NCBI GenBank assembly: GCA_964610125.1
Contig: CAZSUV010000001.1
Span: 319,877 to 383,876, forward strand
From: an uncultured Candidatus Saccharibacteria bacterium
GTDB lineage: Bacteria > Patescibacteriota > Dojkabacteria > SC72
DNA: 64,000 bases
Reading direction: 5' to 3'
This document shows positions 21,326 through 44,408 of the stretch, piece by piece; the first letter of the stretch is position 1, and each line of letters begins with the position of its first letter. The position numbers and the translations under genes were made by a program. The notes under the pieces are model-generated. The model made no database searches. It was given only the letters and a program-made list of their open reading frames with translations, and was not told the DNA's origin.

Positions 21326-22243
21326 TTATTTTACTATTCCAATCCACTCATTGTTTCTACTAAAGTAATTGAATCCATCAGAGCTATCAGAAATAAAGTA
21401 TCCTATCCAACTGTTGGTTTTGTCAAAAACGATATAATTTGATTGATTATTTTTAATTGCATATCCTTGTTGTTGATTGTCTAAATTGTAAATTAATTTG
21501 ATTTCATCATTAGCATCAATAATATATCCTATTTTCTGGTTGTTTCTTTCAAAAAGAGAGAAACCATTAAAGTTTGGATTAAATGTTGGATTGATTACGT
21601 GATTAAAAACAGGGTTAATAGTATGGTTGTAAACAGGATTAATAGTGTGGTTGTACACAGGATTAATAGCGTGGTTATACACAGGATTAATAGCGTGGTT
21701 GTACACAGGATTAATAGCGTGGTTGTACACAGGGTTAATAGTGTGGTTGTACACAGGGTTAATAGTGTGGTTGTACACAGGGTTAATAGTGTGATTGTAC
21801 ACAGGGTTAATAGTGTGATTGTATACCGGATTTCTACCTTCTAAGTTTCTAGCAGGAGAACTAAGTATTTTTTGAGACACTAAAATAATTGCTTCGTATA
21901 TGTTAATTCCGGCAATTTCTGTATTTTTTAAATTCACAGCGGATTCTGTTACTTTTATAGTTCTGTTAAATGATGTTACAAAATGGTCTTCGGTAGAGAG
22001 AAAAGTTATTCTTGCGATACTGTTTAATTCTTCTCTAACAAGTGAATTTCGTATCTTCTCGAGCCAGTAATTCAGGATATTAATTCGGTTAGCACGATCA
22101 ATCCATGGACTACTGATAACAATTGTCCATTTATTGGCTTCTGAGTCTATTTTCATCAAAAGAAAGAGAGCGATTTCTCCTTTTTCTGTTGATATTTGTT
22201 TTATTAGATTTAATAATTTGTTTACCATTGTGTTGACATCCAT
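21326..22243 (-). CDS. octapeptide tandem-repeat protein (13x NPVYNH[TA]I) with an N-terminal globular domain and a C-terminal W-I-G-Y beta-repeat region
   Basis: Translation shows 13 consecutive NPVYNHTI/NPVYNHAI units. The C-terminus has three xWIGYxxD-like repeats. Start taken at Met 22243 (alternative 22228). The upstream part of the track ORF overlaps the HEPN gene. Confidence 0.5.
   Translation of the reverse strand: MDVNTMVNKLLNLIKQISTEKGEIALFLLMKIDSEANKWTIVISSPWIDRANRINILNYWLEKIRNSLVREELNSIARITFLSTEDHFVTSFNRTIKVTESAVNLKNTEIAGINIYEAIILVSQKILSSPARNLEGRNPVYNHTINPVYNHTINPVYNHTINPVYNHTINPVYNHAINPVYNHAINPVYNHAINPVYNHTINPVYNHTINPVFNHVINPTFNPNFNGFSLFERNNQKIGYIIDANDEIKLIYNLDNQQQGYAIKNNQSNYIVFDKTNSWIGYFISDSSDGFNYFSRNNEWIGIVK
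21599..21840. repeat. 24-bp tandem repeat, ~10 copies (ACAGGRTTAATAGYGTGRTTGTAC), coding for the octapeptide repeats
   Basis: Direct inspection: the repeat unit recurs with only G/A and C/T transitions. Confidence 0.9.
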
Positions 22244-22650
22244 GTATGAAACCCCCACCTTCTTGATGTGAGAGCTAATATTAATTCTCGAGATTGAATT
22301 TGAGAGTAAGTTCCAGAGGGTTGGTATCTTTGCTCTGGGCGCCATTGAGTTAATAATAACCAGTTAGTGTATAATTTTTTCTTTGAAATATTGGTTATAT
22401 TTACTTCTCTTTGTAATCCAGATAGTAGTAAGAGCCTATCGAAATCATGTGAACTAAAAATTGGTTTAAAGTCTCCAGTATCAGGATATTCTGAAATATT
22501 GAGATGTTTACATATACGTGCTTTTAAAGCTAGTTCTACCACATAGCCACATAAATATGCCGCTCCATCGTATAGCCCATTCCTATGCAGCACGCGTGCT
22601 TCTTTTAGCCTTACTTCGGCTAGAATTTTGAGATCATTATATTTAAGCAT
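22222..22650 (-). CDS. HEPN-domain protein
   Basis: LKEARVLHRNGLYDGAAYLCGYVVELALKARI...SSHDFDRLL closely parallels the HEPN consensus (A..LL..GLYDGAVF.AQQAAEKALKALL...THDL). Start set at Met 22650 because the track ORF N-terminus is antisense to tRNA-Gly. Confidence 0.6.
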   Translation of the reverse strand: MLKYNDLKILAEVRLKEARVLHRNGLYDGAAYLCGYVVELALKARICKHLNISEYPDTGDFKPIFSSHDFDRLLLLSGLQREVNITNISKKKLYTNWLLLTQWRPEQRYQPSGTYSQIQSRELILALTSRRWGFHTWMSTQW

Positions 22651-26336: not shown

Positions 26337-26410
26337 GGGCCGCTAGCTCATCCGGTTAGAGCAACTGCCTTTTAAGCAGTAGGTGCTGGGTCCGAGTCCC
26401 AGGCGGCTCA
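26337..26410 (+). tRNA. tRNA-Lys (anticodon TTT). Its 3' end is the integration site (attL) of an integrative element.
   Basis: GGGCCGCTAGCTCATCCGGTTAGAGC-ACTGC-CTTTTAA-GCAGT-AGGTG-CTGGG-TCCGAGT-CCCAG-GCGGCTC-A. The T-loop is TCC, not TTC. No CCA encoded. Confidence 0.85.
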
Positions 26411-27876
26411 CTTCCTGAAACATTTCCTATGGTGATATAGTCTTTAACTTCTTCTAGTACGGATTCTTGAGGTGTTGCAAATTTCTCTCCGTCAAACTGT
26501 AAACCTTCTGAAAATAGGAATTTTTGCAACTCGTTTTGAGATACAACATCCAATTCTGGCCATACAGAACACATATTCTTGAGAAAGTAGGTTGAATATT
26601 CAAGTAATTCATCGTTTTGTTCCTCAATAGGGGAATATTGTGCTATCTCAAATCCGATCTGCGCATACTCATCTTCAAGCTTATCAAGTTGTTCTTTTGC
26701 TATTCGTGGCGGAAGTATTCCATCTATGTTTTGCTGTGATATGGCGCTTTCCTGATTTGTAATTTGCTTTTGCCTTTCTTGCAGTATTTTTAAGTCTGTT
26801 TGATGGGCTTGTTCTTTCTCTTTCCAGTTTAGTTCTATTGCCTTTTTTGTTAGCTCTACGAGGCCCTCAGATAGGCTTACAGACGTAAGATATTCTTCAA
26901 AGGCTTCATGGACCTCTTTCCTTTTCAAGTTAACATTTTTACAAAAAGTACATTTGTAATATGGGTATTTATGTCTAGTCCAGTTTGCCGTCATTTTTCG
27001 GTTACAATGAGGGCACAAGATAGTACCTCTTAAAGGAAAATCTGGGTGTATTTTTCTATATACAGGGGGATTATGATTCTTACCATCGAGAATATCTTGT
27101 ACTAGGTCAAAGATTTTTGGTTCTATAATTGCGGGGAATGATCCTCTGATATATAAATCCATGTTTGGGATATTAATAAATCCTTTGTATATTGGTCTTC
27201 TAACTAATCGATGGAAACTAGAACGACCATACATTTTGTTATTATTATCCTTCAGTCCTATTTTATATGAATAAATTCGAGCATCTTCAATCGTATGCCC
27301 TCCTTCCGAAAGGTACTGAAAAATCTTCTTAATAATTTGTGCTTCTGTTTCATTCTGAATTAAGTTTGCCTTTCCTCTTCCTCCTGTTTGTATATATCCG
27401 TATGGAGCTGCATATACCCATCGTCCTTGTTTTAATGCTTCCATTGTCCCATTTCTTGCTCTCTCTCCTCTGATTTCATTATCCATCTGAGCAGAGGCTG
27501 CCATCATGGTCTCGAAGAAGCGTCCAGCTGGACTATCTTCAAGATTCTCCGTTAAGGAATGTATGCGAACATTATACCTTGCTAATAAAACTTTGAGACT
27601 TCCATAATCAAGTTGCTGTCTGGAGAGTCGATCTATTTTGTAAATTACGAGTGTATCAACAAGATTCTTATTTTTGCTAACAAAATCTAGTAGTTCTTTA
27701 AGTTTAGTTCGATTAATAGTTTTTGCACTCTCTCCATGTTCAATAAATTTCTTAACTATACATAGATCATTCTTTGAGGCAAATTCCTCGCACATTTTTT
27801 CTTGTGTTATCAAACTCAAGCCATTTTCTGCTTGCTCTTTAGTTGAAACACGGCAATAAATTATAATGTTCTTCAT
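26356..27876 (-). CDS. large serine recombinase (resolvase/invertase catalytic domain + recombinase domain + zinc ribbon)
   Basis: N-terminal IIYCRVSTKEQ (catalytic Ser). The recombinase domain includes a C-terminal CPHCNRKMTAN...YYKCTFC zinc ribbon. 506 aa. The 3' end reads into the tRNA-Lys/att region. Confidence 0.85.
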   Translation of the reverse strand: MKNIIIYCRVSTKEQAENGLSLITQEKMCEEFASKNDLCIVKKFIEHGESAKTINRTKLKELLDFVSKNKNLVDTLVIYKIDRLSRQQLDYGSLKVLLARYNVRIHSLTENLEDSPAGRFFETMMAASAQMDNEIRGERARNGTMEALKQGRWVYAAPYGYIQTGGRGKANLIQNETEAQIIKKIFQYLSEGGHTIEDARIYSYKIGLKDNNNKMYGRSSFHRLVRRPIYKGFINIPNMDLYIRGSFPAIIEPKIFDLVQDILDGKNHNPPVYRKIHPDFPLRGTILCPHCNRKMTANWTRHKYPYYKCTFCKNVNLKRKEVHEAFEEYLTSVSLSEGLVELTKKAIELNWKEKEQAHQTDLKILQERQKQITNQESAISQQNIDGILPPRIAKEQLDKLEDEYAQIGFEIAQYSPIEEQNDELLEYSTYFLKNMCSVWPELDVVSQNELQKFLFSEGLQFDGEKFATPQESVLEEVKDYITIGNVSGSEPPGTRTQHLLLKRQLL

Positions 27877-28049
27877 TTTTTCTTCCCCAAATTTTTAGAT
27901 CTTAAATATGATTCTATAACAATATTTGAGAGTCTTTCTACATTAGGAATAAGAAAAGGAATATCCTCCTCTGGAATCTTTAAGGATTTGGCTATAGCGA
28001 CTAACTTTTTATACTTTGCATCAAATGCAGGATCGAAACTAATAGGCAT
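27873..28049 (-). CDS. 58-aa ORF translationally coupled to the recombinase (ATGA overlap). Putative recombination directionality factor/excisionase-like protein.
   Basis: MPISFDPAFDAKYKKLVAIAKSLKIPEEDIPFLIPNVERLSNIVIESYLRSKNLGKKK. Its stop overlaps the recombinase ATG. The position relative to the recombinase is typical for Xis/RDF genes. Confidence 0.35.
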   Translation of the reverse strand: MPISFDPAFDAKYKKLVAIAKSLKIPEEDIPFLIPNVERLSNIVIESYLRSKNLGKKK

Positions 28050-28267
28050 CTAAACAAGCGTACTTATTTATTTTTCGTGCCTAACCTTGGTTAGACACAA
28101 GATGATGCATAAATCAGTTTTCTCCTTACATAAAAAGTTAGTTACCCGTCTCAGATGAGACATTTGTATCTTACAAAATTGCTTAAATGAAGTCAAAAGT
28201 GGAGAAATAATATTTTAATAGCAACATTTTTTTTGATCTTCCTGATGTGTATAAATGTTTAGAGTTT

Positions 28268-28511
28268 TGCTATAATTTATTTGACCTAAACCATATGAAT
28301 TTATGTGGCATGGTTACTAAAGATATTAGCTAATAACTAATATCTACAATCCAACACAATGGCAGAGGCGGGCTTCCGTTTCACTATCATTGTGTTGGTT
28401 ACAGACCGAAAGGTTTGTAGATACCCCGAAAGAGGTATCGGTGAGCGGGAGTCCACTTTCGCAAAGGTTGGCTCTTACTCGTAACCAACCTAAGTTATTA
28501 AAAAAAAGGCT
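28268..28511 (+). ncRNA. candidate structured 5' leader/ncRNA (riboswitch-like) upstream of the Zn-ribbon membrane protein gene
   Basis: Extended -10 TGCTATAAT at 28268-28276. Palindrome AGATATTAG..CTAATATCT (28321-28345). 11-bp perfect stem CCAACACAATG/CATTGTGTTGG (28349-28359/28389-28399). Two GAAA tetraloop hairpins (ACAGACC-GAAA-GGTTTGT; ATACCCC-GAAA-GAGGTAT). A CGCAAAG motif, then stem GGTTGG..CCAACC just before the RBS. Confidence 0.35.
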
Positions 28512-29693
28512 ATGGAGACACAATGTCCTAGCTGTAATAAGAGTGTAGACGTTTATGGTCCAGGAAGGCATAAATGCTCATGGTGTGGTGATTCTTTTAC
28601 TATTAGTGAGAAAAAATTCTCAACAATGAAAGAATCTTTTCGATCTGTCCATGCGACTAATTCTCCTTCTTTAATTTCTTCAGTTGCTGTGGTATTTCTT
28701 TGGATATTATCAGTACTTGGTTTCTTACTAGGCCTAGTATTCTTAGCGGGGAATGCTCTTTCAGGTGCTTTTGCCCTATGTTCTGCATTTATTATTCTCC
28801 CTCCCATCGCCAAATTACTTATCAAATTATTCCATCTCAGATTAATGTATGTTTTTATTGCATCCATTGCTTTGTTTGTAGCAGGCGCAATTATTCTAAG
28901 ATTTCCCCCAGTGAAATATTTTAACTCAGCCCAATCAAATAGTACTGAAACGCAGAGAATCATCCCTGGAAAAACAGAAATAACTACTGATGACCCAAGA
29001 CAAATCCTTTCATATGATTGTGTTAATGTTACAGCAATAAAAATAGGTGAAAAGGATATAGCACCTGCGAGTATTGAGCAAATCTGTAGTGGTAAATATC
29101 ACTTAAATTTACAAAGTGGGCTAAACTCTTACCATATAGAGATAACTACAAAGTCTGGGGTATTAACAGAAGATTTATCTGTTACTTTTGATGAGGTGAC
29201 ATACAATGCCAAACTGAAGGCAATTGCAGATGCAAAGGCACAAGCAGAGGCAGATGCAAAGGCTGCGGAAGAAGCTAAACTACAAGGATATGCAACAAGT
29301 TATTGTGCTAATAGAAAAACCGCAACGAGAAAATATGGGACATTTACGATATCGGATAAAGGTATTTCTGCTGAATTTTCAAAAGGCAAACAAGGACGAT
29401 ATCTAAAAATTGCTGACTGTAGAGCTATCATCGACACAATGATAGCTACAATGAAGAAAAGGGAAGGCTCTGTGAAGTCAGATATTCTTGATTTGATAAT
29501 AGCTGGAGAATACAAAATGGGGATGTATGAATATTATTTCTTTGCATCCGCGGGGAATCCTGATGATATAAATAACTCACAATATGGATCAAATGAGCAT
29601 GATCAAGTGATATATTACAAAGATTCTTATGGAATTAGTGCAAATTACTATTATTTTGATAATGGTGTTTTAACATCAACACAGGATTTCTAG
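28512..29693 (+). CDS. zinc-ribbon membrane protein with large extracytoplasmic domain (element cargo)
   Basis: N-terminal CPSCNKS...HKCSWCG zinc ribbon and three TM helices. The ~250-aa outer domain has an AKAQAEADAKAAEEAK linker and a Tyr/Asn-rich C-terminus. Confidence 0.5.
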   Translation: METQCPSCNKSVDVYGPGRHKCSWCGDSFTISEKKFSTMKESFRSVHATNSPSLISSVAVVFLWILSVLGFLLGLVFLAGNALSGAFALCSAFIILPPIAKLLIKLFHLRLMYVFIASIALFVAGAIILRFPPVKYFNSAQSNSTETQRIIPGKTEITTDDPRQILSYDCVNVTAIKIGEKDIAPASIEQICSGKYHLNLQSGLNSYHIEITTKSGVLTEDLSVTFDEVTYNAKLKAIADAKAQAEADAKAAEEAKLQGYATSYCANRKTATRKYGTFTISDKGISAEFSKGKQGRYLKIADCRAIIDTMIATMKKREGSVKSDILDLIIAGEYKMGMYEYYFFASAGNPDDINNSQYGSNEHDQVIYYKDSYGISANYYYFDNGVLTSTQDF

Positions 29694-29696
29694 TGC

Positions 29697-29714
29697 TGCA
29701 ACAACGTTGTTGCA
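29697..29714. repeat. 18-bp perfect palindrome TGCAACAACGTTGTTGCA immediately after the stop of the membrane protein gene
   Basis: Self-complementary by inspection. Possible terminator stem or operator. Confidence 0.6.
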
Positions 29715-29732
29715 AAGGCGTTTCGAATTTTT

Positions 29733-29841
29733 CGGTGCGTATAAAAAAGGGGATTTTTGAATAGCTTTTGACACTTTTCCGATGCGTATAAAAAGGGGAT
29801 TTGAGATAAGTTTTTACTTTTTCAGTGCATATAAAAAAGGA
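29733..29841. repeat. three direct repeats (~24 bp, period ~45 bp): CGGTGCGTATAAAAAAGGGGATTT / CCGATGCGTATAAAAAGGGGATTT / CAGTGCATATAAAAAAGGAACGGA, each preceded by a T-run
   Basis: Copies at 29733-29756, 29779-29802 and 29823-29841. Each contains a TATAAAA -10-like core. A TTGACA sits in spacer 1 at 29769-29774. Confidence 0.65.
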
Positions 29842-29949
29842 ACGGAATTTGGTTATTCAATATTTTCCCCCTAATCTTATGTGAGGCCTCTTTCGTTTGT
29901 TTAACAATTTGTACTTGTAAATTACATTTATTATCAATATAATCAAAGA

Positions 29950-30264
29950 ATGGAACCCAATAACGATCAAATCCAGGAAATACAACTTGCTGGGAAGAAG
30001 TTAGACTCCAATACCCAGGACATTTCAATAATAGAAGAATATGGAAAGAATCTTTTCTTAGAAAATGAAAAGTTTATTAAAGAAAAAGTTCCAGATAATT
30101 GGTTCGCAATTATAGACCCATTTAATGCTTTGCTTATTGCTTCGCCAGATACTGTAACGCTATATCAATATTCTCAGAAAAGAACATCTAATATGCTCTT
30201 TTACTTCGTTGGTCTGATAAAAAACAGTTTTAAGAATATGTACATATATGCAAGAAGAGATTAA
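29950..30264 (+). CDS. hypothetical protein (104 aa), overlapping the downstream protease gene by 17 nt
   Basis: ORF with start 100 nt downstream of the repeat trio. No recognisable motifs. Confidence 0.3.
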   Translation: MEPNNDQIQEIQLAGKKLDSNTQDISIIEEYGKNLFLENEKFIKEKVPDNWFAIIDPFNALLIASPDTVTLYQYSQKRTSNMLFYFVGLIKNSFKNMYIYARRD

Positions 30265-30727
30265 GCAACAAAGATTAGAATTCCCTGTCGCAGATAACTT
30301 TTCACCAGAAATTACAATTGAGGTTATTGGACTTTCAGGGGAGTCTAGGAAAGTTGTTGCTATAGTCGATACTGGATTCACAGGTTTTTTACAAATACCT
30401 TTGGCAATAGGAATTTCATGCAATTTAGCCCTTTGGAGTATTAGTACTTCCATCCTAGCAGATGGGAGCAGGGTTCGTAACCTTCAATGTTTTGGGAAAA
30501 TTCGTTTTGGAAACAAAGAACTAGCTAATATACTGACATTATCTGATACTGGAAACGACTGCTTATTAGGGGTGCAATTCCTCCAAGAGTTAAAGGGAGA
30601 ATTCATCTTATCACATGCCGAAAAGAAAGCGATTTTTTGTTTCCCAGAAGTTGAACAATTAAAAGATGGTCCTAAAGATAAAACGGCTGAAAGTGGTACG
30701 AAATCAAAGAAAGAAAAGAAAAAATAA
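30248..30727 (+). CDS. retropepsin-like (clan AA) aspartyl protease
   Basis: VAIVDTGFTGFLQIPL contains the D-T-G-(F/A) catalytic triad in a hydrophobic context. The later LLGVQFL is flap/dimerisation-like. Lys-rich C-terminal tail. 159 aa. Confidence 0.6.
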   Translation: MQEEIKQQRLEFPVADNFSPEITIEVIGLSGESRKVVAIVDTGFTGFLQIPLAIGISCNLALWSISTSILADGSRVRNLQCFGKIRFGNKELANILTLSDTGNDCLLGVQFLQELKGEFILSHAEKKAIFCFPEVEQLKDGPKDKTAESGTKSKKEKKK

Positions 30728-30749
30728 TTGAATCCCCTTTTGTGAAGAT

Positions 30750-31592
30750 TTACAGTGCTAATATGCTAGAAGGTTTTCCGAGGCAGCATTTTTTATACTT
30801 TAATCCACTTCCGCACGGGCAAGGGGAATTACGTCCGATTTTAGTTTTATTTCTAACAGTTGTTTGTATTGGTTCAACGCTTAAACACATATCGGCTATT
30901 TGAAAACCACTTGAATTTTTATATATATTGGCAGTAGGGCATACATATCCAGGCTCTAAAGTCTTTCTAACCTCATGGGCAATTTGCCTAATAGAACCTG
31001 CGATTACATCTACAAAATATGCTTTTTCTGTAGTATTGTTTCCAAACATTAATCCAAGTGAATTGAAATATTTCATATTTAGATATACCTCGTCAGTTAA
31101 CTCAGTATCTATATGAGCTCCACCATCTTGGTCTGCCACATTTAAGACTAAGTCTTTTCTTGTTAAGCCTTGTCCACTACTGTCGTTTATTACAACTGCA
31201 TTCCACCAGTCATTAAAATTAGCTTTCTTTATACCATCATGCGAAGGATCTTCATCTAAGAGAGGAATAGGATGCTTGAAACTTGGATCAATTATAGTGA
31301 GTCCATAGTGTGACATGGGAATTGAAATAGGATTCTTAACAATGTATGTGTCTAAAAAGTCCGTTGTTTCTAAAAGATTCATGCTTCCAAGAAGAGATTT
31401 GCTATTCCTAGTATCATGTAGCAAAAGCCTTAGCCTTGCTGCCATATTTTTAGCCTCTGCATAGGAACCCTCATCATAGCTTTTAATTGAGTTGTCTAGA
31501 AGCTCGAGTTGCTCCTTCAGATCATTTTGTAAATTTTCTGTAGTCTTTATATAGGTCATATTTGAAGTATAGGATATTTTTTTACATAACAA
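30750..31592 (-). CDS. SEC-C-motif (CPCGSG..KYKKCC) zinc-binding protein of unknown function
   Basis: C-terminal [15 protein letters not shown] is a textbook SecA-C-terminal-type SEC-C motif. The remaining ~250 aa have no recognised domain. The true start may be Met at 31559. Confidence 0.5.
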
Positions 31593-31790
31593 AAGATATG
31601 GGGCTAGGGAAGCAATATTCTCTCTAAAGATACTAGAGCGTAAGTAAGCTTATAGGGGCGTTGTTTTTGAAACTTCTCTAGCAGACAGAAGTATAATATG
31701 CTAATGCTGAAGTATACAATCGCAAAGTTATATATGAATCAAGCAGATGATCTAAATTTTAGAAGAAATGCCTATGAATAATAAATAAAA

Positions 31791-31830
31791 AAGACCTCAA
31801 ATGTGTAGTTTATGAGGTCTTTTTCTTAGG
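31791..31830. terminator. bidirectional intrinsic-terminator-like hairpin (AAAAAAGACCTCA..TGAGGTCTTTTTCTT)
   Basis: 9-bp stem AGACCTCAT/ATGAGGTCT flanked by an A-run and a T-run, in the 240-nt gap between divergent genes. Confidence 0.5.
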
Positions 31831-31904
31831 ACATGTATTTCGATAAACACATTGTACTAATGTTTTCCAATAACTTCAAGATTTTAATTTTAAGGGTTAC
31901 TACA

Positions 31905-32192
31905 ATGTCTGAATATAATATTTATGCGACTAGCAGAGTTTCAAGTACTCCAATCTATTCGGAGGAAGAAATATCTGGTTATTACTTTTGGTTAAACGGG
32001 GTCCAAAGGTATCTTTCTAAGGCGGATATGAGGAATGCGTATCGAGTTGGAGATCAATATTTTACCTATCGCTCTAATTCTCAGCCAAGAACGGCGTGTT
32101 CTTGGGAGATAAGCACTCGTAGAGAATGGTATCTAAAGAGTTATCCTAACAATACAAGTGCAGATAACCTTTTATCTTTGCCAATAATATAG
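31905..32192 (+). CDS. hypothetical protein (96 aa from Met 31905), last gene inside the element
   Basis: ORF only. Start chosen at the first Met after the terminator hairpin. Confidence 0.3.
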   Translation: MSEYNIYATSRVSSTPIYSEEEISGYYFWLNGVQRYLSKADMRNAYRVGDQYFTYRSNSQPRTACSWEISTRREWYLKSYPNNTSADNLLSLPII

Positions 32193-32399
32193 GTGGTAAG
32201 GGGCATTGAAATATATGCCCCTCCTATACAGTACTATTCCCATGCTGTATTTATACTCAGGCTTTCAGGTGTAATATTCAATCGCTTTAATAAAGATCCT
32301 AGGCTTAACAACCTTTCTGTAATTTGTTGCAAAACTTTTCCAGGCGGCTCACTTTCTCTCCATAGACTTATCCACATTCTTAACATATAATGATGATAT

Positions 32400-37181: not shown

Positions 37182-37949
37182 TCAAAGAATCCACAAAATG
37201 AGAATGGATATGGTTGCTGATACTAATGTTCCTACTATGGTTTGCATAATGGTATGTTTTTTCAATATAACCCTAGAGGCTGCAATGAGTGGTGTAAAGA
37301 GAAATATCAATGGTAAAGCTGTTGCATATGGAAATAGATAGAGTAATGTGAAGAATAGTAAGGTTGAGTATGTCATATGTCCGCTCATTTTCCAATACAG
37401 GGTGACTATGGTTAATACACATGTGGAAACAAAGATGGCCAATGTGATATGGATAAGGGTGGTGTCTTTTACAAGGAATGTGGTTAGTAAGAAGAGCAGT
37501 AAATATCCAATGGTTGTGATTGTGAAGTAGAGTGGTCTTTCTTCTCGTTTGGTGAATTCGTAGTCGGAGATTTTTCCCATTTTTCTCAATATGACGAATG
37601 GGGCTATGGTTATAACGAAATACAAAAATGGAAAGAGGAGTTTGTAAATGATATTTGTGTCAGATACCATGAAGGCAATGGTAGGAACTAATATCATTGT
37701 TAGAAAGCCATTGAAGAGTTCTGAGATGATTCTTGCGATTTTGGGTAGTAGATTCTTTTTCATATATCTGACTATTGTAGCGTAGATGTTGGTAGAAAAA
37801 AAGGCACAGATGTCTGTGCCTTTTCTGAGACTAAATATATTCCCTATTTTATATTTTTCTCTTTTTCTTCTTCCTCTTTTCTTCTTCGTGCAATCAAGAA
37901 GATTATGAAGGCTAGAAGTGTTGCCCCACCGATTACATATATCCACCAT
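37182..37949 (-). CDS. polytopic membrane protein of unknown function
   Basis: Six predicted TM helices. The N-terminal ~35 codons of the track ORF overlap the giant gene and are probably not translated (likely start MKKNLLPKIAR). Confidence 0.4.
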   Translation of the reverse strand: MVDICNRWGNTSSLHNLLDCTKKKRGRRKREKYKIGNIFSLRKGTDICAFFSTNIYATIVRYMKKNLLPKIARIISELFNGFLTMILVPTIAFMVSDTNIIYKLLFPFLYFVITIAPFVILRKMGKISDYEFTKREERPLYFTITTIGYLLLFLLTTFLVKDTTLIHITLAIFVSTCVLTIVTLYWKMSGHMTYSTLLFFTLLYLFPYATALPLIFLFTPLIAASRVILKKHTIMQTIVGTLVSATISILILWIL

Positions 37950-40900
37950 GGGATTGTTTTACCTTTGGTTGTATCTGTATTTGTGTCTTGAGCACCTTTA
38001 ACTTCTTCAGTATTTGGAGTTGTTACAGGTGATGTAGTTTCTGTTGCTGGAGGAGTTGTTTCCTCTGTAGTTGCACCCTGTACTTGTCCTTCAGGTGCTT
38101 GAGGTACTGCTGCTACAACAATGCTTGCTGCATATGGGTTGTTTCCTGTAACTACTGTATTAGAGTCACTTTGGTTTCCTGCTTTATCTACAACATAGTA
38201 TGTAAATATATGTGAACCAACACCAAGAGTATTGATAAGGGATGTTACATTCCAGTTGTAAAGGATACCTGTTATTGGGGTACAAACTAATGGATTTGCA
38301 TCAAGTGTATAGCATACCTGATCTAAATCAGTATTATCACTTAATGCTAGCAATCTTGGAGTTGTATCACCTGTTGTGAATGAAAGTGCTGCTAATACTT
38401 GTGCTTCTGGTTTTGTATTATCTACAACTAAACCGGTAAGGGTTTTAACTGTGGTATTTCCACTGTTATCCTCAGCTGTTACAGTTACATTGTATGTACC
38501 ATCTGCAAGATCAAATGTTCCATTGTTGACGTCTAAGCTCCATGTTGAAGCTCCGAGTACTGCATCTGAGGTTATTCCACTTCCAAAGTCTAATGTAACT
38601 TTCTTAACATCAGAGAGACTGTCTGAAACAGTTCCATTTACTGCAAATATGCCTGCAATTGGGAGAGTCACGGAAGGATTTAAAATTGCTAATTCTGGAT
38701 TGGTTTTGTCTATCTTTATAACTACGTCTTTTGAAGTTTCAGAGTTTCCAGCATTATCGATTGAATAGTATGAAACTGTATTTTCACCTTCTGAGGAGAT
38801 AACTACAGAGTCACCCTCGGTATATTCTGACCCATTTAATGAATAGAATGTTTTTGCGCATTCACTTCCATCATCTGAGCATGTGAGTCCGGCTGTTACA
38901 TCTGTCTTATGCCAAAGAGAATCTGTTCCGGAAATTGTAGTTACAGGTGCTGTCCAATCTATATTTATTTTACAACTGCTCTCAATCCCTGAATCATTAA
39001 CTAATGCCCATGGAGACATATTTCCAGCTTTATCTACGGCTCTCACTTGGAATCCATATGTTCCTTCTGATGGAATTGTCCACCATGAGGAGTCAAATGA
39101 ATTAGTTGGCATAATACTGCTTGTTAATCCAGCTGAACCGTCCGGTGCGTTATATGAAGAGTACTCATAATGGTCTAAGTTTGCATCCTCGCTAGGATTC
39201 CAGTACTCGCTTACGTGCTTTGTATTTGAATATCCGTTACATTGGATAGCTTTTGCGTTATCCAAATCCATGAAGTAAAGATTGGTTGGTGTTGTAGGGG
39301 CAACAGTATCTAATGTTACATTCCATATATTACTCCAATTACTGTAATTACCTGCCGCATCCTTAGCTCTTACTTGCCAGTACCAAGTTCCATCAGGAGC
39401 TCCGGATGAGTGAATCATAGCTGTTGGTAGAATATCTGATTTCCAAAGTCCTGTTGTTAATACCCCTCCAGATTGTGTTGGGTTCATAGATGATTGGAAT
39501 TCATATGTAAGTGCTGAAGCATCGGTTGAAGCATTCCAAGTAAAATCGAAGTTGTTAGTTGGGATTATTGAGTTATTTGGAAGTCCATTTGTTGGAACTG
39601 TAGGTGCTGTTGTATCTATTACAAATGGCCCAGCATGTGTTGTAGAAGTTATATTTCCAACATTATCAATTGTTCTGATATTGAAATACCAAACACCATC
39701 AGAAAGAGGGCGACTAGTTACATGGTTAGCATCTGCTGATAACCAATTGAAGAAGCCAATATTTGGGGTTTCTTGTGTGTGAGAGAATGAATAGTAATAG
39801 CCTGATACGCCACTTCCATTACCATCGTTTGCGCCACTAAATGAAATATCAATCGTTTTGTCTCTATTTGGAGTTAATGTATGTGATGTTGAACTTACTG
39901 TTGGGTCTATTGGATTTTGGCTATCCCATATGAATGAATCTGAAGTACCTGCTATAGCTGTATCTTGAACTTGATCCCATGCGTATGGGGTTACAGTATA
40001 GGTAACTCCATTATCCATCATTGAAGATGGTAATAGCTTTGCTAATACCCAATTTTCACCAAAAAGAATAGTATTTTGAGTTCCAAATGAGCTAGACCAG
40101 CTACTATTTCCTACCCAATATCTATTATCACTACTTCTTTGCATTGTTATATTTACATCTGTAACATTACTTACAGAATCAGATGCTGTACCAGCTATTA
40201 GTGGTAAATCATTTGGTCCATAGAAATGATCTGCAATATTTACTTTTGATTTTGCATATTCTTTATCTACTTCTCTTTCTGTAACTCGTGATGTTGCAGA
40301 GTTACCAGCATTGTCTTGAATCTTTGCCTGAATGTCTAAGTCTTCGCTATTGAAGAGTATTGAGCTTGGTACACTGAAGGTACAGCTACTTGCAGTATAT
40401 GTTCCTGTGTTCCATGAGTGGCCATTATTAAGAGTGTATTGGCATGATGTATTATTTATTCCACTTAGAGTGTCATTAACAAGTACTGAAATATTGAATC
40501 CATTGTATCCATTAACATATCTACCAAAATAATCTTGACTAATTTGAATATTTCCAAATGTTGGTTTTCTGGTATCAAATACAATGTTATCCATTTCTGG
40601 GCTATGCTCTGTATTTCCAGCTTGATCTGTTGCTTCTGCTTTTACATCAAATGTACCTTGGAATGGTGGTGTCCATGTTGTAGTAGGCCATACAAAGGTA
40701 TTGCTATTTGAGGAGTTATCCATGTGCTTAAACTTACCCCATGTGTTTCCAGTGCCACTGATTCGGTAATATAGATCTACACCTGTTACACCATTTGAAT
40801 CGGTGGATGTCCCATTTATGACTATTCCAGAATTATGGTATGTGTTTGCTTGAGTTTGAATGAACTGCGATACTGGTGCAAGATTATCTACAGTAAACTT

Positions 40901-43900
40901 CAATCCTAGTACATCTCTAAATTGATTTATTGAAGGTATATCTTTTCTTGTTGCGTTATCATATACCTGATGTGCCATGTAATATGTTCCATCTGGAAGT
41001 GTTGCTACACAATCTGTGAATTGTCTCTGAGTTGTTAGTGTGAATGGATTTCCAGAGAGTGTTACTAGGTTTGGTGCTTGTCTCCAACCACAGTATGAGA
41101 GTTTTCCATTCTGTGAGAATGCGAAGGATCCATCATTTTGAGCTTGGAATATTACAAATGAATCCTGGTATAGACCTGAAGATGGATTGCTATCAGTATA
41201 TGCTCCTGTGAAGGACAATTGGCTTACATTTTTTACAAATGCTTGCGCTCCTAATACTGCGATACCATCTTTAAAGTGTGTATATGTTGCGGTTGGTGCT
41301 TGGGTATCAATAACTACATCCTTTGTCACAACTGTTACATTTCCTGCAAAATCAGTAAGAGTTAAGGTAACAGGGTAGGTACCATCAGGGAAAACTTGTC
41401 CAAATGCAGGTGATGTCCAAGTTCCATTTGTGAATTGTAAATTCTGGTTGTAACCATTCAATGCAATATTTATACTTGCTACACCAACGTTATCAGAGTA
41501 TGTACCCTTGAACATCGGAGAATTGCTATTGGTTTTGAAATTGTTAATTGTATAGTCTTGTGCTCCTACAACATAGTAGAGACTGTCAATGCTTCCACTT
41601 GGTGCGGTGGTGTCTACGTTAAACTGAACTCTTGGTGCCCAGTTTGGATTCCCAGCAAGGTCGTATGCCCATGCTGCAATTTCATATCTGCCTTCTGAAA
41701 GATTACAACTTCCACCATTATTTATTGTTGCTGTCCAATTGGTTCCATCAAATATCGTTGGGATTGATGTACATCCTGAAACTAATGTTTTTACTGCCCC
41801 GACTACTTTGTATATATGCATTGATGCAGATTGAATTCCTGTCTGAGCGTCAGATGCTGAGATATCAATTTTTACATTTCCCTTGAAAGATTGATCAGCT
41901 ACGGGATTAACTACATTAACAGTAGGTCTTGTTTTGTCTAATGTGATATTACAGTAGTTACTCCACTGTGATCTTCCTTCATAACTATCCAAAGTATTAT
42001 TTGAGTTGGAATCTATATATGCTCTGACTCTTGTTTTCCATAGTCCTTCAATACCAGTACTAGAACCAAAGGTTGCAAATGGAGTATTTGTTATACTTCC
42101 AGCATCAAAGTAACTAATTCCACCTGTTGGGAATGTTACTTCTCTTTGATATTTTATATTTAATCCACTTACACTTGACCAGTTCTGGGAAACGCTATTT
42201 TCATTTGTATATACTGTGCCTGTAGAACATGTTAAGTCTAAAGGAGTTTCATTTGGTGTGGTAGATTTTGAAGCCACATTCCATCCAAGGTTGATAGGGG
42301 TTCCGATTCTTAAATACAACACCCTTGTAAATCCATTATCAACTGAGTCATATTGGTCTGTAGTATCAACAACTGAAACAGCTTTTCTAATATCATCCAT
42401 CCATATTGCTTTAAATTCTGTATGATGGCTCGTACCTAAGACAGTTAATTTTGCTTCAGTAGTTACTCCTCCGCCAAGGTCGAGATTTATTCCTCCCCAG
42501 GTATTGTTTGATGTTGTTATATTATTTACAGTAACTGTAGATCCATTAACAACAATACCTGCACTGCCATTATTTTGAACAGTTACTTTATCTAAAAGAA
42601 TATTCTTTGCAACATAGATATTTATTCCATGTAGATTTGTAGAACTAATTCCATCTACAGTAAGATTTTTTAATGTAACATCATCATGGGCAATTGAAAT
42701 TGCAGCATTATTTGAATTATCAGTTTTTGTAAATGTGCTATATATACTGTGATTGTTTCCATCCAATGTTAACGCTTTGTTAATATTGAATCTCGATGCC
42801 ACATGTACATCACTTAAGAAGTGTATTGTTCCACCTGCAGCAACTCTTGCAAGTGCTGGTACTATGGATGAATATGGATGGAATCTTCCTCCCAAATCTG
42901 AGGTATAGGCCGTACTTTCATCTACATATACATCCGAAAGTACTGCTGGAGATACTCTTTGATCTTCAATAACTGCATCGTTATTTGCTTCGCTAAGGGA
43001 TGAAACATTTGTGTAATATGATGAACTTGTTGCTGAGAGAATTGCAATATCATATACATTTGTATTTACTCCAGTACCCCAAGTATTGTTCGTAAATGTC
43101 ATATTACCCTGTTCAACTACCCAACCTTTTGTACTGTATACATAGTTGTTTAATATATTTCCTGTTGTAACACCGCTAATGTATGCAGGCTGTCTAAGAT
43201 TATGGATAGTATTGTTTTGAATCAAAAGCCCACTATGCCCACCACTTATAACCATAGCTCTGCTAACCTCTGGATCACCAATCACAAATTGTCCACTGAT
43301 TTGGTTATTTGTAATTGATATATCATTTGCATTAATCCAGATAATATTCTGCTCTCCTGTTTTATCTGTCTTTTGTATATTAAAGCCTGAAATTGTGTTC
43401 CCGTTTGCACTCATTACGAATCTATAACCAGTTCCAGAAACTTGAATTACAGGATTTCCAATTCCCATTAATGTGACATTTGGGGTATCCATATTTACTA
43501 CAGAATTCAAAACATATGTTCCTGTGTTTACACGAATTGTATCTCCAGCAACAGCTGAATCAACAGCCTCTTGAATGGTATTGTAACATCGATCTCCTAC
43601 ACTTACTGTTAGCCCTGAAGCAGAGCAATCTGTCGAAACTGGATTTGGAAGCGTAACTACAAATATTGTGAAGTGATTAAGGTCTTCTATTTTTAATGAC
43701 TTTCCATTGTCTACAACATTACTAATATCTTTGACGTTATCCTTTGCTAATTCATTAACATTCTCAGCATATACAACCTTTTTGCTATCTCCTGTTTTAG
43801 GCAATGTAAGGTCATATTTAAATGTGCCATCAACCATATCTGTAGTTATGTCATATGCGACATTTGATGAAGCATTTGTAGCCTTAACCTGCTCATCAGT

Positions 43901-44218
43901 TAAATATATGGTTTTAATAGTAAGAGTACTGGATGTAGATGGTAATTTTGAGAATGTAACTGTAACCGCAGGGTTAATAGGATATTCATAAGTGATTCCC
44001 GTAACAACAGGAAGCGATGTAGTGGCAGATTCCCCAGATGTAATCCATGAAGGATCAGATACTCCAGTTGGAAGAATATCCTTACTTTCATCTACAGTTG
44101 TTGCAGCATCCTCCACAGGTATAAGGGATTCTATAGCTAAAAGAGGTTGGGCAAATGTAAACAAAATGAGGAACATGGAGGTAAACAACCTCAAACCGAA
44201 AGTAGAAGATCTCTTCAT
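37844..44218 (-). CDS. giant (2124-aa) secreted cell-surface protein with N-terminal signal peptide, beta-helix/Ig-like repeat regions and a C-terminal TM anchor
   Basis: Signal peptide MKRSSTFGLRLFTSMFLILFTFAQPLLA. Asn/Thr/Ser-rich repeats of the NNTI..N type (right-handed beta-helix-like) and many TxDxAGN-like Ig/cadherin-like blocks. The C-terminus has a TPPATETTSPVTTP linker, the TM IPWWIYVIGGATLLAFIIFLIA and the tail RRRKEEEEKEKNIK. Confidence 0.8.
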   Translation of the reverse strand: MKRSSTFGLRLFTSMFLILFTFAQPLLAIESLIPVEDAATTVDESKDILPTGVSDPSWITSGESATTSLPVVTGITYEYPINPAVTVTFSKLPSTSSTLTIKTIYLTDEQVKATNASSNVAYDITTDMVDGTFKYDLTLPKTGDSKKVVYAENVNELAKDNVKDISNVVDNGKSLKIEDLNHFTIFVVTLPNPVSTDCSASGLTVSVGDRCYNTIQEAVDSAVAGDTIRVNTGTYVLNSVVNMDTPNVTLMGIGNPVIQVSGTGYRFVMSANGNTISGFNIQKTDKTGEQNIIWINANDISITNNQISGQFVIGDPEVSRAMVISGGHSGLLIQNNTIHNLRQPAYISGVTTGNILNNYVYSTKGWVVEQGNMTFTNNTWGTGVNTNVYDIAILSATSSSYYTNVSSLSEANNDAVIEDQRVSPAVLSDVYVDESTAYTSDLGGRFHPYSSIVPALARVAAGGTIHFLSDVHVASRFNINKALTLDGNNHSIYSTFTKTDNSNNAAISIAHDDVTLKNLTVDGISSTNLHGINIYVAKNILLDKVTVQNNGSAGIVVNGSTVTVNNITTSNNTWGGINLDLGGGVTTEAKLTVLGTSHHTEFKAIWMDDIRKAVSVVDTTDQYDSVDNGFTRVLYLRIGTPINLGWNVASKSTTPNETPLDLTCSTGTVYTNENSVSQNWSSVSGLNIKYQREVTFPTGGISYFDAGSITNTPFATFGSSTGIEGLWKTRVRAYIDSNSNNTLDSYEGRSQWSNYCNITLDKTRPTVNVVNPVADQSFKGNVKIDISASDAQTGIQSASMHIYKVVGAVKTLVSGCTSIPTIFDGTNWTATINNGGSCNLSEGRYEIAAWAYDLAGNPNWAPRVQFNVDTTAPSGSIDSLYYVVGAQDYTINNFKTNSNSPMFKGTYSDNVGVASINIALNGYNQNLQFTNGTWTSPAFGQVFPDGTYPVTLTLTDFAGNVTVVTKDVVIDTQAPTATYTHFKDGIAVLGAQAFVKNVSQLSFTGAYTDSNPSSGLYQDSFVIFQAQNDGSFAFSQNGKLSYCGWRQAPNLVTLSGNPFTLTTQRQFTDCVATLPDGTYYMAHQVYDNATRKDIPSINQFRDVLGLKFTVDNLAPVSQFIQTQANTYHNSGIVINGTSTDSNGVTGVDLYYRISGTGNTWGKFKHMDNSSNSNTFVWPTTTWTPPFQGTFDVKAEATDQAGNTEHSPEMDNIVFDTRKPTFGNIQISQDYFGRYVNGYNGFNISVLVNDTLSGINNTSCQYTLNNGHSWNTGTYTASSCTFSVPSSILFNSEDLDIQAKIQDNAGNSATSRVTEREVDKEYAKSKVNIADHFYGPNDLPLIAGTASDSVSNVTDVNITMQRSSDNRYWVGNSSWSSSFGTQNTILFGENWVLAKLLPSSMMDNGVTYTVTPYAWDQVQDTAIAGTSDSFIWDSQNPIDPTVSSTSHTLTPNRDKTIDISFSGANDGNGSGVSGYYYSFSHTQETPNIGFFNWLSADANHVTSRPLSDGVWYFNIRTIDNVGNITSTTHAGPFVIDTTAPTVPTNGLPNNSIIPTNNFDFTWNASTDASALTYEFQSSMNPTQSGGVLTTGLWKSDILPTAMIHSSGAPDGTWYWQVRAKDAAGNYSNWSNIWNVTLDTVAPTTPTNLYFMDLDNAKAIQCNGYSNTKHVSEYWNPSEDANLDHYEYSSYNAPDGSAGLTSSIMPTNSFDSSWWTIPSEGTYGFQVRAVDKAGNMSPWALVNDSGIESSCKINIDWTAPVTTISGTDSLWHKTDVTAGLTCSDDGSECAKTFYSLNGSEYTEGDSVVISSEGENTVSYYSIDNAGNSETSKDVVIKIDKTNPELAILNPSVTLPIAGIFAVNGTVSDSLSDVKKVTLDFGSGITSDAVLGASTWSLDVNNGTFDLADGTYNVTVTAEDNSGNTTVKTLTGLVVDNTKPEAQVLAALSFTTGDTTPRLLALSDNTDLDQVCYTLDANPLVCTPITGILYNWNVTSLINTLGVGSHIFTYYVVDKAGNQSDSNTVVTGNNPYAASIVVAAVPQAPEGQVQGATTEETTPPATETTSPVTTPNTEEVKGAQDTNTDTTKGKTIPWWIYVIGGATLLAFIIFLIARRRKEEEEKEKNIK

Positions 44219-44408
44219 GAATTAAAAAGACATTTAATTTATGTTAAGAAGTTTTACTTTGAAAATAGTCGCCGCAAAACCTCTCTGTACAGATCGGTTT
44301 CGCCATTAGCTCCTCTTGATTCATATAGCGACCAAAACGAAATCAAGTATCAATGCCCCTGTCCCATAATAATATATCTTTTGAAATATGAAAGTCAATA
44401 TCTTTTCA

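Follow-up and report, generated by a model that had tools for sequence, protein, structure and literature searches.

A divergent LOOT RNA in the leader of an accessory gene on a Patescibacteria integrative element, and a proposed two-state fold for its family

What does a long stretch of apparently non-coding DNA do between a divergent recombinase operon and a membrane protein gene? The question is raised by positions 28050-28511 of a 64,000-nucleotide stretch of an uncultured Candidatus Saccharibacteria bacterium (GenBank assembly GCA_964610125.1, contig CAZSUV010000001.1, positions 319,877 to 383,876, forward strand), referred to here at its full length as the window. An earlier description made from the letters without database searches, hereafter the sequence-only reading, had taken the region for a highly structured leader and a candidate riboswitch or non-coding RNA. 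We compared the whole window, on both strands, with Rfam 15 (4227 families) using cmscan. The LOOT family (RF03000) matches 28283-28439 (+) at E 3.4e-6, its 49.0 bits exceeding the gathering score of 46.4 by only 2.6 bits; R1, a covariance model built from 100 sequences and extended by 34 nt on the 3' side, matches 28283-28472 with 59.7 bits (E 7.8e-16) and finds a single copy in the window. The region from 28283 to ~28460 (+) encodes a divergent member of this known but functionally orphan RNA family, and is the most divergent of all LOOT copies recovered, with no close relative among them.

The Rfam alignment spans the 5' hairpin, including the CCUAAACC...GGCAUGG loop, as well as the two tetraloop hairpins on the 3' side, and skips 45 central model positions via a local end. 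Positions 28285-91 and 28308-14 agree with every upper-case base of the Rfam LOOT consensus, and both GAAA hairpins (28400-19 and 28420-39) are aligned with high posterior probability. The Rfam model failed to align the central hairpin because of an extra hairpin at 28321-45 that it cannot place; by eye, a central bipartite hairpin is seen at 28351-98 with the same architecture as in LOOT (an outer stem and an inner stem). The parts of the window RNA are as follows.

28268..28276, + strand: extended -10 box TGCTATAAT, read from the sequence at a site that the promoter scan missed
28283..28315, + strand: P1/P2 hairpin (P1, 28283-86 / 28312-15; P2, 28291-97 / 28302-08)
28287-90 / 28309-11, + strand: invariant P1/P2 internal loop, UAAA / CAU, read as a CCUAAA_CAUGG variant of the 11-nt GAAA tetraloop receptor
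28321..28345, + strand: optional hairpin inserted in the P2-P3 joiner (J2/3), 9-bp stem and 7-nt loop, not in the LOOT consensus
28351..28398, + strand: central hairpin P3, whose outer stem P3a is formed by X (28351-62) and X' (28387-98)
28365-71 / 28376-82, + strand: inner hairpin P3b, 7 bp, loop GCUU
28400..28419, + strand: P4, 8-bp hairpin with a GAAA cap (28408-11)
28420..28439, + strand: P5, 6-bp hairpin plus the pair C27-G32, GAAA cap (28428-31), one C.A mismatch
28443..28459, + strand: 3' strand of P6, past the end of the Rfam model, pairing with 28365-28381 (the P3b 5' strand, its loop and more) in 16 bp with one mismatch
28443..28480, + strand: P8, local 15-bp hairpin (28443-59 / 28464-80) with loop CGCA (28460-63), a rival partner of the P6 3' strand
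28466..28490, + strand: terminal stem, GGUUGG (28466-71) / CCAACC (28485-90)
28517..28525, + strand: candidate X-copy GACACAAUG, in codons 2-5 of the 393-aa gene

All that the sequence-only reading had listed in these letters is there, displaced by 0-3 nt at most and with some redrawing. The region 28050-28511 contains only short overlapping open reading frames (ORFs) of 39-75 aa, and its 3' part is indeed highly structured: 28283-28515 folds with a minimum free energy (MFE) of -82.9 kcal/mol, whereas dinucleotide shuffles reach -52.1 +/- 4.5 (z = -6.8, 0/200 as good). The extended -10 box is present without a good -35 (TGTATA at 28248-53 agrees in 3/6 positions), and the transcription start is predicted at ~28283, the first base of P1. 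What had been called a perfect palindrome at 28321-28345 is an inverted repeat of 9 bp (28321-29 / 28337-45) around a 7-nt loop, and relative L077 also has an extra hairpin between P1/P2 and P3. The perfect 11-bp stem exists at 28351-61 / 28388-98 (12 bp if G62.U87 is counted), with a loop of 26 nt, not 29, that holds the inner 7-bp hairpin; the two GAAA hairpins lie at 28400-28419 and 28420-28439 instead of 28402-20 and 28423-40. The CGCAAAG motif (28460-66) is the P8 loop plus the first stem bases. The GGTTGG / CCAACC stem ends ~15 nt before AAGG (28506-09) and the ATG at 28512; its GGUUGG overlaps the P8 3' strand, and the terminal stem competes with P8. Of "candidate riboswitch or ncRNA", the conserved structured RNA held and the riboswitch did not: at E<=10 over 27900-28700 the scan returned, besides LOOT, only noise, with no riboswitch family, no c-di-GMP model and no RF01051, and it detected no likeness to the put and EAR families. 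A resemblance to c-di-GMP-I (GEMM) aptamers is thereby unsupported; the GAAA loops and CCUAAAC/GCAUGG form a generic tetraloop-receptor pair, used by GEMM-I too, which probably explains the impression.

The original description of LOOT drew on metagenomes (Weinberg et al. 2017, PMC5737381), and Rfam lists the family, under the type Gene; sRNA, as a "metagenomic-based" small RNA (sRNA) (PMC7779021). CaCoFold reported 28 "cross-covariations" for it (PMC7657543), and Rfam 15 added two base pairs. Beyond the Rfam listings, the CaCoFold remark and these base pairs we found no published comment on LOOT, the supplement describing the motif not being covered. Since 2017-2020 the family has stood in Rfam as a metagenome-only "sRNA" without host, context or function. 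The window copy places it in a genome and within a delimited integrative element; BLASTN of 28050-28520 against 50,697 phage records gave no match.

To place this copy among its relatives, we gathered sequences with a DNA pattern of conserved bases, which gave at least 120 matches each in the GTDB species genomes and in a metagenome collection and also matched a few IMG/VR contigs. CCUAAACC and GGCAUGG are fixed by this search pattern, and both are also upper-case in the independent Rfam consensus. Among the matches listed, R1 recovers ~225 copies, one per locus, mostly with 75-135 bits; three viral-contig matches score 72-82 bits against Rfam LOOT. The relatives are not marine orphans: named lineages of Patescibacteria, the candidate phyla radiation (CPR), account for 72 of the 109 model-positive genome loci among the matches listed, and include Saccharibacteria, Paceibacterota, Doudna-, Morani-, Uhr- and Kaiser-bacteria and others. 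Of the remaining listed genome loci, 17 are unclassified, five carry other labels on short contigs and 15 are small metagenome-assembled genomes (MAGs) labelled "uncultured Gammaproteobacteria". The carriers so labelled are L052, L078, L088 (OZ246416.1) and ~12 more MAGs, with one 886-kb chromosome that has three copies; either the label is doubtful or the LOOT family extends past the CPR. Metagenome sources include, by contig names, groundwater and activated sludge. The pattern also matched Serratia, Pectobacterium and comparable genomes, but not at LOOT copies. In loci L012, L032, L041 and L083 a small GNRA- or UUCG-capped hairpin lies just 5' of P1.

Covariation among homologous leaders, to which the sequence-only reading had looked, is found in every helix, with RNAalifold run on the family. 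In a model-based alignment of 83 sequences, standard pairs occupy 91.6% of cells, against 63.1% for shuffled and 40-47% for slid partners, and the covariation score is 0.743 against 0.213 for shuffled alignments (0/500 shuffles as high). P2 covaries and is paired in 94% of cells. In P3a (93% paired) all 11 pairs have changed on both sides, and the duplex energy of a locus's own arms is -19.1 kcal/mol as opposed to -7.5 for permuted arms. All eight pairs of P4 covary (97.5% paired), and P5 is paired in 96.7% of cells; the P4 GAAA loop is nearly invariant and the P5 loop is GNRA.

An additional helix emerges when the alignment is extended on the 3' side. RNAalifold on the extended family alignment chooses a long-range pairing, P6, between the A-rich stretch directly 3' of X, the P3b 5' strand and its loop on one side and the sequence after P5, including the "U-tract", on the other. 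The P6 core is 96.6-98.8% paired with many compensatory exchanges (one column pair is AU in 68 and GC in 26), in a second alignment produced by a model from which P6 was absent. In the window, hand pairing and a computed duplex give P6 an energy of -31.2 kcal/mol; P8 is part of the MFE structure, with a duplex energy of -17.9 kcal/mol. P6 and P3b use common nucleotides, and P6 abuts X without a linker, so that on steric grounds the X:X' helix and a 17-bp P6 should be unable to stack as a pseudoknot. Under constrained folding the two states lie within a few kcal/mol of each other (median ddG -3.5 kcal/mol, P6 favoured); in unconstrained MFE folds local tail hairpins dominate, and the conflict between P3a and P6 is not representable there. 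A long-range closing helix in the MFE structure of the window (28311-17 / 28480-86) is without counterpart in the family and is not claimed. Some features of P6 would suit a terminator: it is GC-rich, most relatives have UUUUUGU-like runs after it, and P3b competes with it. Others would not: the covariation of the U-run is that of a helix strand and not of a simple tail, P6 encloses ~60 nt, and the run in the window is only CUUUC.

The invariant bases have a structural rationale. From its sequence, the CCUAAAC/GCAUGG internal loop is recognizable as an 11-nt-type GAAA tetraloop receptor, an identity assigned by its position in group I introns: three such introns among the false-positive pattern matches (68-75 bits) have the identical CCUAAAC...GCAUGG at P6a/J6a-6b/P6b. 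These introns lie in large IMG/VR contigs (L018, 6457-7253; L022, 5827-6131; L024, 7813-8609), as tandem pairs in L018 and L024. The wild-type receptor is CCUAAG_UAUGG, and variants at its G.U position are documented (10.1101/2024.03.11.584472). LOOT shares with it the CC/GG closing pairs, the UAA core and AUGG, and offers P4 and P5 as GAAA partners, whereas the canonical G.U pair is replaced by A/C (CCUAAA_CAUGG). We infer that a GAAA loop docks into this receptor, and that the loop of P4 is probably the one. The receptor, the near-invariant GAAA of P4 and the GNRA loop of P5 together account for essentially all conserved bases.

Where does this RNA stand relative to genes? The window LOOT sits 53 nt upstream of a co-oriented 393-aa gene with hydrophobic segments, in agreement with the leader position directly upstream of a membrane protein gene given by the sequence-only reading. 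Across the family, a same-strand ORF of >=60 aa starts <=100 nt after P6 in 125 of the 133 loci with enough flank, and the median gap of 29 nt indicates a leader layout with no room for a second promoter. In 70/165 relatives a TGnTAnnnT motif lies with its end 5-50 nt before CCUAAACC, as compared to 10/165 in a control window, with a peak 20-30 nt upstream of P1; the -10 box of the window, 8 nt away, is nearer P1 than in any relative. The rule for the family is a promoter, LOOT, ~30 nt and the ATG of a variable accessory gene, often beside a divergent large serine recombinase, in CPR genomes. The first downstream genes are very diverse and include DUF4352, DUF5655, PG_binding_1, N6_N4 methylase, trypsin-like protease and bPH_2 proteins, zinc ribbons, an Ltp lipoprotein and small membrane proteins; a segment resembling a transmembrane helix occurs in 77 of 131. 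The sequence-only reading had tied conservation of the stems to that of the downstream gene, and the relation came out reversed, since homologues of the gene lack the RNA and the RNA is kept before many different genes.

The start region itself often carries part of LOOT. X differs among loci (CCUACGCGAAU, CCACAACGACAU, ACCGCUACAGUG and others), and an exact repeat of it (9-16 nt, often with an AAAAUCC joiner) is found downstream in 38/158 loci (24%), against 2.4% when arms taken from other loci serve as control. In 33 of these 38 loci an ATG follows 0-8 nt after the repeat (background 23%), and in 42/161 loci the X':downstream duplexes are more extreme than the 5th percentile for permuted pairs. 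Different genes follow related backbones that share an X, and the likeness stops at the ATG. Where X recurs at the start region, X' has two possible partners, X and that region. For P6 together with an X':X-copy duplex a pseudoknot appears sterically possible (loops of 8-12 nt and ~14 nt or more); for P6 together with X:X' it does not. In the window, AACCAAC (28483-89) repeats the first half of X and can pair with X' too, and ACACAAUG (28518-25, codons 3-5) repeats the second half and is complementary to X' over 9 bp (28388-96). What the sequence-only reading proposed, a leader that is structured and has an expression platform, is supported in outline: alternative 3' pairings reach the translation start. 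We considered whether the X-copy replaces a Shine-Dalgarno (SD) sequence and rejected this, as SD-like motifs occur before 16% of LOOT-led ORFs, 15% of other ORFs and in 13% of random windows; loci with and without an X-copy do not differ in these motifs.

On the strength of this fold and genomic context, which are observed, we propose with about even confidence that LOOT functions as a ligand-independent two-state 5' leader that gates accessory-gene expression. During transcription, fold 1 would form first, with P3a and P3b made and the 3' strand parked in P8; X would then mask X' and the start region would be open. In fold 2, P6 would take the P3b 5' strand and sterically exclude P3a, and the X' so released could pair with the X-copy at the start codon and close the start region. 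P6 and the U-rich tail may attenuate transcription as well, and the P4 GAAA loop docked into the P1/P2 receptor would set the overall architecture. Such a switch, set kinetically, by Mg2+ or by a protein, could limit or time the expression of element cargo, largely membrane and surface proteins; with no conserved pocket and no pathway shared by the downstream genes, we favour a switch of this kind over a metabolite sensor. Several points weigh against the proposal. Only about one locus in four has an X-copy, and the window has a short one broken into pieces of 7 nt and 9 nt, partly within the coding sequence, which makes the start-site link only suggestive for the window copy and a translational mask there weakly evidenced. 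The enrichment of P8 in the family is modest (-12.0 kcal/mol for own and -9.8 for permuted pairs; <= -12 in 50% against 26.5% of loci). That P3a and P6 exclude each other is argued on steric grounds, with a compact pseudoknot containing a partial P6 as a possible alternative, and the nested-fold energies ignore tertiary contacts. Finally, P6 with its U-rich tail could be an efficient terminator that makes LOOT a separate sRNA.

The neighbourhood of LOOT bears on what else the RNA might do. By tblastn with the recombinase of the window, 57 of 170 strictly defined loci have a homologue, which in 45 of them is upstream and divergent, often 190-650 nt from LOOT; among the 38 loci with >=2.5 kb on both sides, a recombinase lies within 2.5 kb upstream in 11 and downstream in one. 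Large serine recombinase domains are the commonest Pfam domains among nearest upstream ORFs (24/129), followed by DNA methylases, ParB_N and tyrosine integrases. In loci L033, L053, L081, L090, L138 and L226 another conserved block of non-coding sequence (AATGACAGAAC ... GCTATGCAGAA ... GCGATAGGGT) lies ~200 nt upstream of LOOT. In many loci it stands between the start codon of the divergent recombinase and LOOT; it could be a recombinase 5' untranslated region or operator, or an att site. The block is not in the window, where a 58-aa ORF sits instead.

Four other explanations of LOOT were weighed against the two-state leader. A free-standing trans-acting sRNA that ends at P6 and the U-rich tail, with X' or the whole RNA acting on other molecules such as the neighbouring mRNA, would fit the Rfam type, the GC-rich P6 followed by UUUUUGU-like runs and the complementarity of X' to the start region of the adjacent gene in ~25% of loci, which would work in trans too. 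We nonetheless regard it as unlikely: the co-oriented ORF that follows P6 so closely in 125/133 loci leaves that gene no space for a promoter of its own, and the "U-tract" covaries with the upstream A-rich strand (AU to GC and CG), the window tail being only CUUUC. The 5' leader position and mutually exclusive helices would suit a riboswitch, that is, an aptamer for c-di-GMP or another small molecule with P6, P8 and the X-copy as expression platform; a tetraloop-receptor architecture is seen in GEMM-I too, and a c-di-GMP-II-GAG aptamer match elsewhere in the window indicates that this genome uses riboswitches. No riboswitch family matched even at E<=10, however, and conservation of unpaired nucleotides is almost confined to the receptor and the GNRA loops. 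The downstream genes have no common pathway (DUF4352, DUF5655, peptidoglycan-binding proteins, methylases, proteases and small membrane proteins), and LOOT travels with mobile elements. With the invariant nucleotides explained by the receptor module and the downstream genes of ~130 relatives unrelated, a metabolite riboswitch is very improbable.

The strong positional linkage described above speaks for a partnership with the serine recombinase, in which LOOT would serve the enzyme as RNA cofactor or guide, would regulate integration or excision, or would be a DNA site of recombination or inversion made of X, X' and the X-copy; the layout resembles the intI-Pc-attI integron platform, and guide RNAs are precedented for IS110 and IS605 elements. 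Only ~30% of copies adjoin a recombinase, however, and LOOT has no significant similarity to the att core or flanks of the window: local alignments of LOOT with attL and attR are no better than shuffles, and a guide-like similarity between P3b (AGGCGGGCUUCC) and the att core (AGGCGGCTCACTTCC) failed against shuffles. The idea of cassettes or att sites was rejected, as X recurs elsewhere in the 8-kb locus in just 2/170. G.U pairs and GNRA loops are kept, which is a signature of RNA and not of DNA, and there are no inverted variants among the ~225 copies. A partnership in any of these forms thus appears to be a long shot, as little probable as a riboswitch. Even more remote, in our estimate, is a processive antitermination or transcript-stabilizing leader like the put RNA of phage HK022, which would act on RNA polymerase or shield the 5' end and thereby let foreign cargo operons be expressed. 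LOOT is predicted to lie at the very 5' end of mobile-element cargo transcripts and is compact, presumably stabilized by a tetraloop-receptor contact, followed by diverse genes and without an evident ligand pocket; yet it has no detected likeness to the put or EAR families, and antitermination would leave the X-copy at start codons and the P3/P6 competition unexplained. A broader conjecture, improbable but slightly less so than the recombinase partnership in its narrow form, is that LOOT forms the RNA part of a widespread class of serine-recombinase elements in Patescibacteria, which would require it for their own biology. It might tie the expression of cargo to whether the element is integrated or excised, or serve the large serine recombinase as cofactor or regulator; each of these two roles, if true, would be unprecedented for serine recombinases. 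In a weaker version, LOOT could be a ligand-free "self-timing" leader whose element-specific X, duplicated at the start codon, provides each element with a private translational lock.

The two-state leader has precedents in part. Like attenuators, the expression platforms of riboswitches, hok mRNA and the leader of the MS2 maturation gene, LOOT chains mutually exclusive helices up to a start codon (P3b / P6 / P8, and X:X' against X':X-copy), and the fold made first differs from the most stable one. Unlike those systems, it has no leader peptide, identified ligand or tRNA, or antisense partner, and its sequesterer is an element-specific sequence duplicated at the start site, not an anti-SD sequence. 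With GEMM-I it would share the docking of a GNRA tetraloop in a receptor helix, and it shares a place upstream of surface or membrane protein genes, and differs in helix topology and in having no RF01051 match. The integron platform, the IS110 bridge RNA and the omega RNA of IS605-IscB likewise pair a divergent recombinase with a promoter-bearing non-coding module and then variable cargo. The LOOT recombinase is nevertheless a serine enzyme, not tyrosine or DEDD/RuvC, the loci lack attC-like repeats at cargo ends and complementarity to att, and most copies are not beside a recombinase.

Set against LOOT as described in Rfam, the window copy has the 5' hairpin with the CCUAAAC/GCAUGG loop, the long central hairpin and the two adjacent GNRA hairpins, and differs by the 25-nt hairpin inserted before the central one. 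The family as delimited here extends ~20-35 nt further 3' (P6) and takes the position of a 5' leader, not of a free sRNA, in CPR genomes and not only in unassigned metagenome sequence. It thereby gains a Patescibacteria host range, a leader role for accessory genes, often beside a large serine recombinase, a tetraloop-receptor rationale for its invariant bases and the missing 3' helix that would turn a static fold into a two-state switch. Host range, leader role, tetraloop receptor, P6, start-site repeat and recombinase linkage go beyond the published accounts that we found, and suggest that the Rfam LOOT model and its type annotation should be revised. LOOT function is now directly testable by compensatory mutagenesis, and because the CPR are nearly uncultured, any general means of gene control on their mobile elements would be of practical interest.

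The element that carries the window copy, and the genes around this copy, are as follows.

26399..32357, strand not applicable: integrated element of ~5.9 kb, bounded by an 18-nt direct repeat (26399-26416 / 32340-32357, 17/18 identical)
26337-26411: tRNA-Lys
26356..28049, - strand: divergent operon of a large serine recombinase (26356-27876) and a 58-aa ORF (27873-28049)
28512..29693, + strand: downstream gene, 393 aa, with an N-terminal CxxC...CxxC zinc ribbon and then hydrophobic segments

The direct repeat consists of the last 13 bases of tRNA-Lys (26399-26411) and five more, and recurs at 32340-57; this duplication of the tRNA 3' end delimits the element, which holds the recombinase, LOOT and a handful of unannotatable genes. 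An 18-nt repeat is unusually long for a serine integrase. The recombinase (506 aa) has the Pfam domains Resolvase, Recombinase and Zn_ribbon_recom, and its nearest relatives are in Moraniibacteriota, Paceibacterota and Buchananbacteria loci, which together with the distribution of the LOOT family points to a CPR origin of the window. Its ORF (26356-27876, -) extends 56 nt into the tRNA-Lys gene, so that its last ~14 codons are host-encoded when the element is integrated. The 393-aa protein matches no Pfam family and has only two distant homologues among 5.8 billion proteins; both are encoded in loci with short upstream regions and no LOOT. Between its gene and the next ORF lie three tandem diverged repeats of ~45 nt (29707-29841, ...TTTTTCGGTGCGTATAAAAAAGGG), and a 159-aa ORF of the element (30248-30727, +) has a VAIVDTGFTG motif that recalls retropepsin-type aspartic proteases, with no Pfam match.

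Two further features lie elsewhere in the window. An ORF at 21326-22345 (-) encodes ~11 tandem octapeptide repeats, NPVYNH(T/A)I. The c-di-GMP-II-GAG aptamer match (RF03169) at 44283-44368 (-), barely passes the gathering score (40.8 bits; threshold 40) and precedes by 64 nt the start (44218) of a gene for a 2124-aa Big-domain surface protein (37844-44218, -). Though borderline, this well-placed match is a candidate for putting a giant adhesin-like protein under c-di-GMP control.

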